DNA of 64,000 nucleotides from Thermoanaerobaculia bacterium (GTDB taxonomy: Bacteria > Acidobacteriota > Thermoanaerobaculia > Multivoradales > JAHEKO01). Position numbers and translations under genes: made by a program. This document shows positions 40,325 to 47,373 of the stretch, one piece after another (positions within the stretch are counted from its first letter, which is position 1; each line of letters opens with the position of its first letter). The notes under the pieces are model-generated. The model made no database searches, was not told the origin of the DNA, and was given only the letters and a program-made list of their open reading frames with translations. Where the stretch lies: positions 1,141 through 65,140 of the forward strand of contig JBHHWO010000002.1 in the NCBI GenBank assembly GCA_046756565.1, given 5' to 3'.

Positions 40325-41101
40325 TCAGTCGCGCTCGAGAAAGTTCCGGATAGCCGGGAATGACTTGATCGCTTCGATTTCGGCCCGCAGCTCCTCGACC
40401 TCGTCCTCCAGCTCCTCGACCTCATCCTCCAGCTCCTCGAGCTCTGAAGCCCTCCCGTCGAGGGTTCCCTCGACCGTAAGGTCGCCTGCGATGTGCACAT
40501 TGCCCGCGCTGTCGATGACCAGACTGTTCTCGGGACCCCCGGCCTCGATGCGGAAGATGATGGCGCCGGGCGGAATGCATTCTCCCGCGTCTACGCAGGT
40601 GCCGCCGGCATCGGAGCAGAAATTGGGATCCGGAGCGCACGGTTGCCCGTCGAATGTGCCTCCGACACAGACGCCGGCGCAATTCGCCCCGGTGCCGTCA
40701 CCGCACACGAGTCCGTGATTGGTACCGCCTTCGCAGAATCCCTGGCCGCTGACGGAGACGACCCCGGCACCGCGGTCCGCGAACCCCAGAAAGCTCGTCC
40801 CCCCGTTGTTTGCGTCATTAGTGATGATCTCCCAGTCATTTTTCGGGAAGGCGGCAGTAAAACTCGTGTCGTTGAAGAAGATCCGCATGTTGTTCTCTTG
40901 CAGCATGAACGTCGTGAAACTGAACGCTTGCTCGTTTTGGCAGTCGAATCCCAAGCAGGCGCTCCCCACGACAATGAGGTCGTCCGCGATCACCTGGTCG
41001 GCCTGGCCGGCAGACGGACCGACGGCGGCCATCACCGCCATCGCCGTGACCACCAAGGCCAGCATCCGAACAGTCGTTCCGAGCTTTCTTTGAAGGGTCA
41101 T
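40325..41101 (-). CDS. Secreted tail-fibre-like protein with Cys/Gly-rich middle and acidic coiled-coil C-terminus
   Basis: RBS AAGGAGG. Signal peptide MLALVVTAMAVMAAVGPSAGQA. DDLIVVGSACLGFDCQNEQAFSFTTFMLQENNMRIFFNDTS...NDWEIITNDANNGG resembles the N-domain of bacterial tail-fibre-domain proteins (from memory). C-terminal ELEELEDEVEELEDEVEELRAEIEAIK. Confidence 0.7.
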   Translation of the reverse strand: MTLQRKLGTTVRMLALVVTAMAVMAAVGPSAGQADQVIADDLIVVGSACLGFDCQNEQAFSFTTFMLQENNMRIFFNDTSFTAAFPKNDWEIITNDANNGGTSFLGFADRGAGVVSVSGQGFCEGGTNHGLVCGDGTGANCAGVCVGGTFDGQPCAPDPNFCSDAGGTCVDAGECIPPGAIIFRIEAGGPENSLVIDSAGNVHIAGDLTVEGTLDGRASELEELEDEVEELEDEVEELRAEIEAIKSFPAIRNFLERD

Positions 41102-41144
41102 GCTTTTTCCTCCTTGGTGAAGGGTCCGATCGCGAAAGAGCGAT

Positions 41145-41190
41145 CTGCCTCTATCTGGGGAAACGCAAAGAGCGGAGAAAAGGGATCAAG
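41145..41190. promoter_or_regulatory. Copy A of a conserved 46-nt bipartite motif (GGAAACGC ... AAAAGGGATCAAG)
   Basis: Ungapped alignment with 43625-43670 gives about 39/46 identities. The mismatches cluster between the two perfectly conserved blocks. Confidence 0.5.
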
Positions 41191-41292
41191 GGTCCGGGAG
41201 GGCGGCCAGGAGCCCTCGATAGCCTTCTGCCGATGGTCTACGATGAGCTTCGGACAATGGCTCATCACAAGCTCAAGGGGAACCGGAGCGAT
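41191..41292 (+). pseudogene. Decayed 5' fragment of an ECF sigma gene (duplicate of 43721-43825)
   Basis: gtccgggagggcggccaggagccctcgatagccttctgccgatggtctacgatgagcttcggacaatggctcatcacaagctcaaggggaaccggagcgat aligns to the real sigma gene. It lacks the ~50 nt containing the start codon, has a 1-nt deletion (frameshift), and ends after ~100 nt. Confidence 0.6.
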
Positions 41293-44257: not shown

Positions 44258-44349
44258 GCGGTCTCGCGGCAGGGCCTGCCTGGGGGCGAGCGCCGGTGGG
44301 CCTGCCAAGCGCGGTAAGATTCTCAACACCTAAACCGGGTGCCAGCATC

Positions 44350-47300
44350 ATGAAGGGCCCACCGCGAGACCTGTGGCCGAAGATCGAGCCGATTCTCGAG
44401 CGCGTGCTCGAGCTCGAGCCGGAAGCGCGAGACGGGTATCTGGAAGAAGCCTGTGGTGGCGACGCGCGATTGAGACGAGAGGTCGACGCCCTCCTCGACG
44501 CCGACGGCGAGGCCGACCACTTTCTGTCCGGTGCGGCGGGCGACGTCGCGGCGAGTTTCTTCCAGGAGCTCGACCGCACGCTCGAAGTGGAGCCGTCCGA
44601 GCTGCCGGAAGGGCTCGAGATCGGGCCCTACCGGGTGGTGCGGCAGCTCGGCAGGGGCGGCATGGGCGTGGTCTACGAGGCCGAGGACCCGCGGCTCGAG
44701 CGTCGGGTCGCGCTCAAGCTCTTGCCGACCGAAATGGCTTCGGATCCGGAGCGTCTGGAGCGTTTCGAGCGCGAGGCCAAGACGGTGGCGGCCCTGAACC
44801 ATCCCAACGTCGTCACCCTGTACTCGGTCGAGCAGGCGGACGTGTCCTGGGGCATCGCGGGTGGAGCTTCGGGCGGCACGGCCCGAGTGCCGTTCCTGAC
44901 CCTGGAGCTGGTGGAAGGCAAGACGCTGGCGGAGCTGATCCCCAAGCGGGGATTCGATCTCGAGACTCTGCTCGATCTGGCGGTGCCGCTGGCTGACGGC
45001 GTGGCGGCGGCGCACGCCAAAGGCGTCACCCATCGCGACCTCAAGCCGGCCAACATCATGGTGACCGGGGACGGGCTGGTGAAGATCCTCGACTTCGGGC
45101 TGGCCAAGATCCTGGCGTCCGCCTTGGGCGACGCCGCGAGCGAGCTTCGGACTCTCGAACAAACGGCCGCCGGCCGGGTCCTGGGGACTCCCCTCTACAT
45201 GTCTCCGGAGCAGGTTCGCGGCGAGCCGGTCGACCACCGGACGGACATCTTCTCGCTCGGCATCGTGCTCCACGAGATGGCGACGGGCGAGAGGCCGTTC
45301 GGTGGAGGGAGCTCGGCCGACGTCAGCTCGGCGATCCTGCGCGAAGAGCCGCGCTCGGTGACCGACCAACGGGCCGATCTGCCGCGCCATCTGGGTCGGA
45401 TCGTCGGCCACTGCCTGGTGAAGGCGCGGGACGGCCGGTATCAGTCGGCCAAGGACGTGAGCAACGAGCTTTTCGGCCTGCGCCGGGAGGTCGAGTCCGA
45501 GCGGATCCTCGAGAGCGCCGGCGCCGGGGCGATTCCGACGCCTCGTGCCACGCGCCGCAGAAATCTGATCGGCCTGCTGGCGGTGGCGCTCGTGGCGGCG
45601 GGCGTGAGCTATCTCGTGACCTGGAGGGAGCGGGCCTCCGGCCCGGCTCAGGAGGAGAGGGCGCCGGCGGCGGCCGCCGCTGAGCGCAAGATGATCGTGG
45701 TACTCCCGTTCGAGAGCCTGGGGCCGCCCGAAGAGGAGTACTTCGCCGCCGGCATGACCGAGGAGATCACCAGCCGGCTGGCGGCCGTGCGCAGCCTGGG
45801 TGTGATCTCGCGAACCAGCGCGGTGCAGTACGACAAGACCGGCAAGAGCCTGCCTGAGATCGGAGCGGACCTCGGAGCGGACTACGTACTCGAAGGGACG
45901 GTGCGCTGGGCGAAGAGCGGCTCCGGTGCCAACCGGGTGCGGTTCACTCCCCAGCTGATTCGCGTCGCGGACGATACCCACCTGTGGGCGGGCCAGTACG
46001 ACGAGGTTCTGGAGGACATCTTCGCCGTGCAGTCCGAGATCGCGCTCGAGGTGAGCGAGCAGCTCGGCGTGACCCTGGGCGTGCCCGAGCGCGAAGCGCT
46101 CGAGGCCCGCCCCACCGAGAACCTGGAGGCGTACCAGGCTTACCTGCGGGGCCGCTCTCTCTTGGGGCGTATCGGCGGTGAGCTACGCAGTCCCCCGGCC
46201 GCCGAGAGCTTCGAGCGAGCGGTCGAGCTCGACCCCGGTTTCGTGCTGGCGTGGGCCGAGCTCTCCGTGGTTCGGTCTCGGATCTCTTACGGCGGCAAGG
46301 ACCCGAAGAAGCGACAGGCAGCGCGGCAAGCGCTGGAGCGGGCCATCGAGCTGGCACCAGACGCACCCGAGGTCAAGCTCGCGGACGCCTACTACGAGTA
46401 CTATGTCGAGAGGAACTTCGACCGTACCCTCGAGCTGTTGAGCCGGATCGACGAAACCCGCCCCAACGACGCCGAGGCGCTCGAGCTGAGGGGCTACATC
46501 CTTCGCCATCAGGGGCGATGGGAGGAAGCCCGGGAGGTCTTGGAGCGGGCGGCCGAGCTCAACCCCCGGGATCTCTGGCTTCTAGGGAGGCTGGCCGCGT
46601 TCGTTCTGCTGCCTCTCGAGCGCTACGCAGAGGCGATGGACGTCACCGACCGCGCCATCGCTCTAGGGCCCGATCAGCGGCTTCTCTACGACACCAAGGC
46701 CGGCATCTATTGGGCGTGGAAGGGAGCCCTGGTGGAGGCGCGGGCCGCCCTCGAGACCCTGCCGGCACAGAACGACTTCTCCCGGATGATGGAGTTCTAT
46801 CAGGCGATCTACGAGGGGAGTTATCCAGCGGCGCTCGAGCCCCTGGATTCGATGGACCCGGAGTGGGTCGAGGGGTTGACCTTCGGCCGCTGGCCCAGGG
46901 CTCTCCTCGAGGCCTGGGTCTACGAGTTGCAGGGGGAATCTGACCTCGCAGAATCGGCCTACGCGGGAGCGCTCTTATTGGCGGAAGCGGAGCTTCGGCT
47001 ACGCCCTGAAGTGCCGCAGGTGCACAGTGTGCTCGGATACGTATACGCCGGCCTGGGCCGGAAGGAGGAGGCCATCCGGGCAGCCAAACGGGCCGTCGAG
47101 ATCAGGTCGCTTGCCGGGGATCTGGGTTGGGGCTCAGTCGATTACCTCAAACACCTGGCGATCGTATACACACGGGTGGGCGAGTACGAGGCGGCGCTCG
47201 ACGAGCTCGAAATCCTGCTCTCGGTTCCATTCGAGAAGATCTCGATTCCCTTGGTCCGGATCGAGCCCTGGTGGGAGCCGCTGCGCGATCACCCGCGCTA

Positions 47301-47373
47301 CCGGAAGCTGATCGGGGAATCGGGCCGCCCTACCCCAGGGGAACTCGAGAGTAGAAGGAGCCGAAGCCCCTAG
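44350..47373 (+). CDS. Ser/Thr protein kinase with N-terminal helical extension, TM, TolB-N-like module and TPR repeats
   Basis: ATG at 44350 (the track starts at 44254). WPKIEPILERVLELEPEARDGYLEEACGGDARLRREVDALL. GRGGMGVVYEAED, HRDLKPANIM, DFGLAK, SPEQ. One TM helix. IVVLPFESLGPPEEEYFAAGMTEEITSRL. TPR units to the C-terminus. Confidence 0.9.
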   Translation: MKGPPRDLWPKIEPILERVLELEPEARDGYLEEACGGDARLRREVDALLDADGEADHFLSGAAGDVAASFFQELDRTLEVEPSELPEGLEIGPYRVVRQLGRGGMGVVYEAEDPRLERRVALKLLPTEMASDPERLERFEREAKTVAALNHPNVVTLYSVEQADVSWGIAGGASGGTARVPFLTLELVEGKTLAELIPKRGFDLETLLDLAVPLADGVAAAHAKGVTHRDLKPANIMVTGDGLVKILDFGLAKILASALGDAASELRTLEQTAAGRVLGTPLYMSPEQVRGEPVDHRTDIFSLGIVLHEMATGERPFGGGSSADVSSAILREEPRSVTDQRADLPRHLGRIVGHCLVKARDGRYQSAKDVSNELFGLRREVESERILESAGAGAIPTPRATRRRNLIGLLAVALVAAGVSYLVTWRERASGPAQEERAPAAAAAERKMIVVLPFESLGPPEEEYFAAGMTEEITSRLAAVRSLGVISRTSAVQYDKTGKSLPEIGADLGADYVLEGTVRWAKSGSGANRVRFTPQLIRVADDTHLWAGQYDEVLEDIFAVQSEIALEVSEQLGVTLGVPEREALEARPTENLEAYQAYLRGRSLLGRIGGELRSPPAAESFERAVELDPGFVLAWAELSVVRSRISYGGKDPKKRQAARQALERAIELAPDAPEVKLADAYYEYYVERNFDRTLELLSRIDETRPNDAEALELRGYILRHQGRWEEAREVLERAAELNPRDLWLLGRLAAFVLLPLERYAEAMDVTDRAIALGPDQRLLYDTKAGIYWAWKGALVEARAALETLPAQNDFSRMMEFYQAIYEGSYPAALEPLDSMDPEWVEGLTFGRWPRALLEAWVYELQGESDLAESAYAGALLLAEAELRLRPEVPQVHSVLGYVYAGLGRKEEAIRAAKRAVEIRSLAGDLGWGSVDYLKHLAIVYTRVGEYEAALDELEILLSVPFEKISIPLVRIEPWWEPLRDHPRYRKLIGESGRPTPGELESRRSRSP

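Follow-up and report, generated by a model that had tools for sequence, protein, structure and literature searches.

Sigma factors of the ECF43 group (ECF, extracytoplasmic function) are among the few transcription factors that are known to be activated by direct Ser/Thr phosphorylation. Phosphorylation via a co-encoded Hanks kinase activates the sigma factor in EcfP/PknT of Vibrio parahaemolyticus and in EcfK/PknS of Xanthomonas citri, and the described outputs are a polymyxin-resistance regulon for EcfP and the type VI secretion system for EcfK (PMC13147305, PMC8999054). The group is defined by the co-encoded kinase and by region sigma2.2, in which the acidic DAED/DxxD patch is replaced by an uncharged motif with a phosphorylatable, conserved Thr; the consensus is QTTA, and the motif reads STTA in EcfP and QATE, with T51, in EcfK (PMC13147305, PMC8999054). 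Here, an ECF43-type sigma/kinase pair was analyzed in a 64-kb stretch of DNA ("the window") from a metagenome-assembled genome (MAG) of Thermoanaerobaculia (Acidobacteriota). The pair lies divergent from genes for two putatively secreted proteins of fibre-like architecture, and a promoter-like element is repeated upstream of both and of a third, small gene. The reading that we lean towards, on the basis of the sequence, is that of an ECF43 module with a local and lineage-specific fibre regulon.

Two further descriptions bear on the comparison. PknS carries an N-terminal region of about 81 aa that is helical by AlphaFold2 prediction and unresolved in the crystal structure (PknS study). The superfamily of mosaic adhesive trimers (MAT) of Bdellovibrio bacteriovorus comprises proteins with a signal peptide, an N-domain that is conserved, beta-rich and about 110-130 aa long, and variable tips, and has S74 as well as non-S74 members; the word "sigma" is absent from the text of that paper, and no sigma/kinase link is mentioned in it (PMC10769870).

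The locus contains the following features, with open reading frame abbreviated as ORF:

43688-44257, plus strand: sigma factor, 189 aa (PF07638, TIGR02999)
44350-47373, plus strand: kinase 1, 1007 aa (Pkinase, E=1e-43; many TPR families)
43624-43670, minus strand: P1 element, 47 nt, upstream of the 737-aa gene
41376-43589, minus strand: modular protein of 737 aa, putatively secreted (PF01483, E=5e-8; PF25788, E=3e-4)
41144-41190, minus strand: P2 element, upstream of the 258-aa gene
41191-41298, plus strand: dead fragment of a sigma gene (codons ~12-45), 83-86% identical to 43721-43822
40325-41101, minus strand: protein of 258 aa, putatively secreted, with a leader, a Cys-rich N-domain and an acidic coiled coil
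40268-40314, minus strand: P3 element, upstream of the 84-aa ORF, 68% identical to P2
39920-40174, minus strand: acidic ORF of 84 aa with the ribosome-binding site GAGGAGG
37293-39734, minus strand: kinase 2, a Hanks/TolB-like/TPR receptor kinase, 813 aa (Pkinase, E=1e-47)

All ORFs named in an earlier note on this DNA were found with the same coordinates. Three things were absent from that note, namely the P3 copy, the 84-aa ORF and kinase 2 downstream of P3, and the sigma fragment of about 105 nt beside P2.

The sigma factor and the kinases

The sigma/kinase pair is almost certainly a regular member of the ECF43 class, and the regulator itself is ordinary as judged from its sequence. The sigma factor matched PF07638 (Sigma70_ECF) with E=2e-54 and 184.7 bits (cut-off 21.1) and TIGR02999 with E=3e-63 and 213 bits (cut-off 126), two models that we take to represent the ECF43 group. 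Residues 49-52 in sigma2.2 are NTTA (motif L-N-T-T-A), with Thr51 in place of the acidic patch. The relatives used for comparison were the sigma factors of 67 loci that were found by scanning one genome per species (41-62% identity), and 68 with the addition of the metagenomic locus L006. An alignment revealed Thr in the column equivalent to Thr51 in 57 of the 68 relatives. By analogy with the described systems, Thr51 is the likely candidate for the phospho-acceptor of the sigma factor. The linker between sigma2 and sigma4, RGGGTRHTLLDE, carries Thr103 and Thr106, in the region that holds further phosphosites in EcfK.

The start of kinase 1 is situated 92 nt past the sigma stop codon, and a Hanks kinase is encoded directly downstream on the same strand in 56 of the 68 related sigma loci. 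No canonical anti-sigma factor, and no anti-sigma domain of any kind, was found among the neighbours that were scanned with domain profiles. The assignment to the ECF43 type in the earlier note was thus supported by the two profile models, by the NTTA motif with Thr51 and by the adjoining kinase. Shared with EcfP and EcfK are the PF07638/TIGR02999 type of the sigma factor, the conserved Thr in sigma2.2, a Ser/Thr-rich linker, the kinase gene directly downstream and the lack of an anti-sigma factor. In contrast to EcfP and EcfK, the predicted output is a small ORF together with two fibre-like proteins that are putatively secreted, local duplication has given rise to three copies of the presumed target promoter, a second kinase without an N-terminal extension is encoded in the cluster, and phosphotransfer and promoter use are predicted from the sequence.

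Kinase 1 is composed of an N-terminal extension (aa 1-90; 44350-44619), the catalytic domain (aa ~94-365) and a single segment with the features of a transmembrane helix (aa 406-425; 45565-45624), which is followed by an extracytoplasmic TolB-N-like region and by TPR repeats. The catalytic motifs VALK, HRDLKP, DFG and SPE are intact. The start codon at 44350 is backed by an alignment with the kinase of a related locus, L114, that extends from residue 1. Pkinase and TPR matches and the 90 aa in front of the catalytic domain are in agreement with the earlier description of a 1007-aa kinase with an N-terminal extension and a TPR tail. The extension was detected in the kinases of 30 related loci. 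This architecture resembles that described for PknS, with about 80-90 aa of N-terminal extension, a single transmembrane helix and an extracytoplasmic domain.

Kinase 2 does not have the extension. It is 39% identical to kinase 1 over 722 aa, and the similarity begins at residue 88 of kinase 1 and runs through the catalytic, TolB-like and TPR parts. The sequence marks kinase 2 as paralogous to kinase 1 in the catalytic and sensor parts, and the transmembrane segment is likewise common to both. The window contains one more Hanks kinase, encoded by an ORF of 963 aa at 1593-4484 on the plus strand, which shares 46% identity with kinase 1 in the catalytic domain.

A repeated promoter-like element

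The repeated element has a length of 47 nt and is composed of TGATCC, 17 nt, CGTTT, 4 nt and AGATAGAGGC. It is present in three copies. P1 has the sequence TTGATCCCTTTTTCCGGCGCTCTGCGTTTCCTGAGATAGAGGCAGA, and P2 is 85% identical to it, with all 7 differences confined to the spacer and to two bases that separate the -10 box from AGATAG. Exact matches to a 46-nt pattern were found twice, at 41144-41189 and 43624-43669 (both on the minus strand), compared with 0 expected from 100 shuffles. The third and older copy, P3 (CTGATCCCGTTTCCCCGTGTTATGCGCTTCTCTGGATAGGCGCGAA), was found with a repeat finder and a looser pattern; it has retained TGATCCC and the 17-nt spacing, and its -10 box is CGCTT. The bipartite motif that had been noticed earlier in front of both fibre-like genes was therefore confirmed, but the copies number three and not two. 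When both strands of the 64 kb were searched with TGRNCC-N17-CGYTT, P1-P3 were the only matches.

All three copies are on the minus strand, each is located 5' of a minus-strand gene, and all point away from the sigma gene. The distance to the start is 35 nt for P1 (ATG of the 737-aa gene, which lies 18 nt inside a TTG-started ORF), 43 nt for P2 (ATG of the 258-aa gene) and 94 nt for P3 (84-aa ORF). Promoters of ECF sigma factors have a -35 box, a spacer of 16-17 nt and a -10 box of the CGT type. It is plausible by analogy that P1-P3 are ECF-type promoters, with TGATCC as the putative -35 box and CGTTT as the putative -10 box. The intergenic regions of the locus contained no sigma70-like promoter. 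In our assessment it is fairly probable that the sigma factor is linked to P1-P3 as its promoters.

The 84-aa ORF downstream of P3 has a G+C content of 0.72/0.39/0.76 at the three codon positions, which is the signature of real genes in the window. No match in Pfam or PHROG was obtained for it. It is probably a real gene, and kinase 2 may be co-transcribed with it from P3.

The origin of the second copy can be traced. In a tblastn search, the sigma protein recovered the fragment beside P2 with E=1e-6; its start codon and the first ~11 codons were lost through a deletion of 49 nt. Because a non-functional remnant of the sigma gene is still attached to this copy, the sequence identifies P2 as a duplicate of the intergenic region proximal to the sigma gene. 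At the related locus L006, one of the duplicated promoters also includes the sigma start codon (repeat D6). These sequence comparisons show that the putative promoters were multiplied locally by duplication, which explains how a regulon can grow locally.

The fibre-like proteins

The N-terminal hydrophobic leaders of the 737-aa and the 258-aa protein suggest that both are secreted. The 737-aa protein consists of a leader (aa 1-24), an FN3-like N-domain (aa ~27-150), a helix, a P-domain (aa ~300-498; 33.4 bits with PF01483, cut-off 21) and a C-terminal domain of unassigned fold (aa ~590-737). The protein has two copies of a tail-fibre-type motif, GGTGATD..GA.T.LG, one at aa 234-249 and the other at aa 508-523. 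The AlphaFold2 monomer model had pLDDT values of 85-93 for the N-domain, above 90 for the P-domain and 85-98 for the two domains together; the value for the shaft was below 50, and the last 150 residues are without a model. In Foldseek searches, FN3 domains matched the N-domain and the P-domains of furin and Kex2 matched the P-domain (furin, E about 2e-6). No sequence match to the PDB was obtained with the 737-aa protein. The PHROG tail-fibre profiles 1591, 11393 and 5481 gave weak matches (E=2e-6 to 4e-5) that are confined to the motif (aa ~199-290; ~40-90 residues).

The P-domain is also found in furin, Kex2 and Aeromonas ASP. Unlike in these convertases, however, it is a stand-alone beta-sandwich module that is inserted in a fibre-like protein. 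Scans with Pfam and NCBIfam gave no Peptidase S8 match, and an identity as proprotein convertase was rejected, because the S8 catalytic domain is absent.

The hallmark of the 737-aa family is the leader together with a conserved N-domain, in which two Cys are invariant and which has the motifs CPTFSW, YELVVY and RYAWSVRA, followed by a helix and the segment TQLSVDGNVDATSF. In an alignment of 10 proteins with unrelated C-termini (A1), 28 columns of the N-domain are invariant. The C-terminal tips vary across the family and include Lcl_C/DUF1566, the P-domain, Peptidase_S74 (PF13884) and beta-propeller-like repeats. Judged by architecture only, the MAT superfamily is the closest described analogue. 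Both consist of cellular proteins with multiple paralogues, a leader followed by a conserved beta-rich N-domain, variable C-terminal tips and S74 as well as non-S74 types. In contrast to MAT proteins, the N-domain is FN3-like, and the tips are the P-domain, Lcl_C/DUF1566 and a C-terminal domain of unassigned fold. Furthermore, there was no sequence match to the MAT structures in the PDB, and the host is a Thermoanaerobaculia MAG without a known predatory lifestyle.

A database protein that matches 85% of the length of the 737-aa protein without a single difference (100% identity; P0031) bears the label "Acidimicrobiia bacterium, partial" and comes from a contig of 2.1 kb. This label is probably due to a binning inconsistency between public MAGs, because the 258-aa and the sigma proteins of the locus were deposited as Thermoanaerobaculia. 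The 258-aa protein is identical to ACE5GX_00445 at NCBI, a hypothetical protein from a MAG of a Thermoanaerobaculia bacterium, encoded on a contig of 69.8 kb.

The 258-aa protein is built of a leader, a Cys-rich N-domain (DLIVVGSACLGFDC...NDWEI, with DLIVVGSACLGFDC at aa 41-54), a short beta segment, an acidic heptad coiled coil (aa ~215-246) and the tail SFPAIRNFLER. The N-domain has 10 invariant Cys across 27 homologues. A profile of the family retrieved 2260 representative relatives of the N-domain, which is present either once or as a tandem. Out of 10 relatives that were sampled, 5 carry Peptidase_S74 as well, which supports the earlier suggestion that this domain is of the fibre or adhesin type. 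The AlphaFold2 model (pLDDT 61.6) was too poor for a fold search, and a sequence search of the PDB yielded GCN4-type coiled coils only. The tail, SFPxxRxFLxR or in detail SFP(A/P)(I/L)R(N/Q)FL(E/S)R, follows the coiled coil (window 40325-40360) and is present in the closest homologues only (P0002-P0007); it may be a sorting or anchoring signal. At 40374-40444, three tandem 21-nt repeats encode LEDEVEE acidic heptads, which suggests that the length of the coiled coil can be changed by repeat slippage.

The features that had been described earlier for the two proteins, the P-domain PF01483 and the GGTGATD-type motif in the larger one, the DLIVxGSxCxGFDC-type domain and the acidic coiled coil in the smaller one, were thus recovered. 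The fibre nature of the two proteins, as read from their sequences, is a tentative assignment to which we give slightly less than an even chance.

Conservation of the module in related loci

The closest sigma factor that could be placed in context is encoded at L114 (JGI Ga0451564_011971) and is 85% identical to that of the window. In a BLASTN comparison, positions 43571-44573 of the window corresponded to 2944-3922 of L114 with 78% nucleotide identity, and this block of about 1 kb was the only conserved one. It contains a vestige of the fibre ORF, namely its first 19 nt, as well as the promoter element CTGATCTCTTTTCTCCGCGCCTTGCGTTTCTCCAGATAGAGGCGAA, the gene for the sigma factor and codons 1-75 of the kinase gene. 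Outside the block the flanks differ, and the divergent gene at L114 encodes an unrelated secreted protein of 883 aa with DUF5648 and an HExxH motif. Between the two kinases, identity amounts to about 70% in the N-terminal extension but to no more than about 38-40% in the catalytic domain, and the sensor parts cannot be aligned. At the level of sequence, this comparison shows a conserved core of target promoter, sigma factor and kinase N-extension, and an exchangeable cargo gene and catalytic/sensor part of the kinase. Because the core stays while the cargo differs in L114, the fibre output appears to be lineage-specific and not a property of the sigma group. The N-extension may be the sigma-specific part of the kinase, since promoter, sigma factor and N-extension travel together while cargo and sensor change.

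The arrangement of the window has a parallel at L006 (JGI Ga0452205_004801). A PF07638 sigma factor that is 55% identical, with the motif QTTA, lies divergent from four fibre-family genes, which are followed by a convergent Hanks/TPR kinase gene. A repeat of similar build, TG(A/G)GCC-N17-CGTTA, is present in three copies and precedes three of these four genes. Neighbour-joining placed the sigma factors of the window and of L006 together in a five-leaf clade. When the regions upstream of the 68 sigma relatives were searched with a strict regular expression for the element, 6 matches were found versus 1.9 expected. At the nearest relatives from reference genomes (L009, L010 and L013), the divergent genes encode a dienelactone hydrolase and beta-propeller proteins, and no convincing motif was seen.

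Members of the fibre families were also inspected in other contexts. The fibre-family genes of L111 and L113 stand alone. At L008, the fibre gene is close to the contig end, and no sigma gene was found in the 10 kb upstream. Three distant homologues of the 258-aa protein (L001-L005) had neither a sigma factor nor a kinase nor a common upstream motif. A metagenome scan with the fibre N-domain yielded 35 contigs, none with an upstream sigma gene; these were mostly short contigs, so that the result says little about linkage. At L103, a fibre-family gene (N-domain at 10013-10357) is located among three Hanks kinase genes (3519-6002, 11020-13185 and 13577-15412), and no sigma gene was detected within 15 kb. 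A match to AGATAGAGGC in L103 is inside a coding region and was rejected as a chance match.

A different motif, (C/T)ACCCGTT(C/T/A)GGGTGT(T/G)GC, is conserved and partly palindromic and was observed about 50-150 nt upstream of many fibre-family genes on unrelated contigs, including genes with no sigma gene nearby. Its sites are L076 957-969, L078 377-389, L087 534-546, L095 755-767, L099 1814-1826, L101 1018-1030, L111 9851-9863 and L113 9851-9863. The motif is similar to the 3' half of the repeat at L006 (CGTTAGGGGTGTGG) and could be a family-wide operator or leader element.

Predicted mechanism and alternative explanations

According to the EcfP/PknT and EcfK/PknS paradigms, the membrane-bound kinase 1 would sense an extracytoplasmic cue through its TolB-like/TPR domain and would phosphorylate the otherwise inactive sigma factor at Thr51, possibly at the linker Thr residues too. 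The phosphorylated sigma factor would bind to core RNA polymerase and, as the repeated TGATCC-N17-CGTTT suggests, would read P1-P3. Transcription from P1 would lead to the FN3/P-domain protein of 737 aa, that from P2 to the Cys-rich coiled-coil protein of 258 aa, and that from P3 to the 84-aa protein, perhaps together with kinase 2. The products would be exported, and at least two of them might form fibre-like, probably oligomeric, surface or extracellular structures. A phosphorylation-controlled regulon had been proposed in the earlier note. The ECF-like geometry, the restriction to three sites in 64 kb, the retention in L114 and the similar repeat in L006 make a local regulon under this sigma factor plausible, but its output would be three promoters and not a pair.

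Several observations weigh against this reading of the locus as an ECF43 module with a fibre regulon. The boxes of the putative promoters were assigned by analogy. No ECF43 promoter consensus was found in the accessible literature, and the EcfK/PknS paper gives no motif. With a weight matrix built from the seven promoter copies, no enrichment was seen in the upstream regions of 65 sigma relatives that are more distant, compared with 650 control windows (p=0.30). Within 10 kb of the 67 sigma relatives from reference genomes, neither of the fibre-like proteins has a relative, and L115, with a sigma factor that is 72% identical, has a peptidase M14 gene and an RND efflux operon and no fibre genes. 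Conversely, most fibre-family genes with a resolved context have no sigma gene nearby. The term "surface fibres" is deduced from the architecture, since the confident AlphaFold2 models cover only the FN3-like domain and the P-domain, and the only Foldseek match of the 737-aa protein to a tail fibre was discarded as meaningless at a root-mean-square deviation of 35.8 A. Lastly, the degree of identity between P1 and P2 (85%) is about that found for the neutral sigma fragment and the sigma gene itself (83%). The likeness of the two copies alone could thus be explained by recent common descent and leaves constraint unproven. Co-conservation of the fibre genes with the pair, the lack of which had been named in advance as a refutation, is accordingly only partial and was seen at L006, but not at the 67 reference loci (0/67), at L114, where the cargo is swapped, or at L115. 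The sequence comparisons indicate that the association of sigma factor and fibre genes is lineage-specific and that the cargo behind the promoter is replaceable.

The first alternative is that the three repeats are scars of segmental duplication without shared regulation, that the fibre genes are transcribed independently of the sigma factor and that the adjacency is incidental. The dead sigma fragment beside copy 2 is equally diverged (83-85%), so that descent alone accounts for P1 and P2, and the other neighbours of the 67 sigma relatives as well as the many fibre-family genes without a nearby sigma gene fit this explanation. However, the mismatches avoid the putative -35 box, the putative -10 box and the AGATAG block, and the much older P3 has still kept TGATCCC and the 17-nt spacing. 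In addition, the element was retained in L114 despite the replaced cargo, the arrangement of sigma gene, repeated element and fibre genes recurs in L006, and no alternative sigma70-like promoter is visible. We regard this explanation as unlikely.

The second alternative is that the 47-nt element is regulatory, but not for this sigma factor; it could be the operator of another factor, an element of the 5' leader or, on the plus strand, a part of the sigma gene's own promoter. The conserved AGATAGAGGC block extends beyond a normal -10 region, GGAAAC on the plus strand resembles a classical ECF -35 box, and the palindromic motif ACCCGTTCGGGT upstream of other fibre-family genes suggests control of the operator type. 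Yet the distance from GGAAAC to any -10-like box on the plus strand is about 21 nt, which is too long, and on the plus side no functional gene accompanies copies 2 and 3. No Rfam match was obtained over 39000-45000, and the minus-strand geometry of -35 and -10 boxes is canonical for ECF promoters. This explanation appears quite improbable.

The third alternative, that the fibre-like genes are a remnant of a prophage or phage-tail-like particle and encode real tail fibres, is suggested by the weak PHROG matches on the GGTGATD motif and by Peptidase_S74 in family members, but it is extremely improbable in view of the leaders on both proteins, the paralogues that are scattered over chromosomal contexts, the lack of relatives of either family in IMG/VR (2.9 million viral contigs) and the lack, within about 10 kb of the locus, of genes for phage structure, lysis or integration. 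The last point had been noted before and was borne out; the neighbours are metabolic or regulatory genes. The 737-aa protein has a short motif of the GGTGATxAxGARxNLG type in common with phage tail fibres, from which it differs by its secretion leader, its FN3-like and P-domains and its non-phage context. By sequence, both families are cellular proteins.

Implications for ECF43 systems

The outputs of ECF factors differ widely between lineages, and the fibre output of the proposed ECF43 module would therefore be only moderately surprising. It would nevertheless be new for the group, as had been suspected earlier, because polymyxin resistance and type VI secretion were the only outputs in the literature searched. 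The known mechanism is unchanged, and the value of the locus would be that of a clean model case, besides what it says on the range of outputs. Its predicted regulon is compact, with three promoter copies within 3.5 kb, and could supply a promoter consensus for ECF43. The retention of the sigma factor and the N-extension, with exchange of sensor and cargo, leads to a concrete hypothesis for the recognition between kinase and sigma factor. Moreover, metagenomes of the Thermoanaerobaculia type contain a large family, so far undescribed, of modular and putatively secreted fibre-like proteins that resemble MAT adhesins.

A more far-reaching idea is that promoter, ECF43 sigma factor and N-extension form a self-contained recombining regulatory cassette. 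The N-extension would serve as a sigma-specific docking module, sensors and cargo would be swapped between lineages, the promoter would be copied locally to recruit new cargo, and MAT-like polymorphic surface fibres would here have come under the control of a receptor kinase. We consider this idea speculative and rather unlikely as a whole. If it were true, the fibres could serve, for example, in the contact-dependent recognition of cells or surfaces.

Surroundings of the locus

The G+C content is 60-69% across the window, and the locus is not a compositional island. No link to the locus was seen for two systems encoded in its surroundings, a TonB-dependent receptor at 50619-53195 and a PAS histidine kinase with a sigma54-dependent response regulator, which is located at 31238-34481 on the minus strand, about 6 kb from the cluster.

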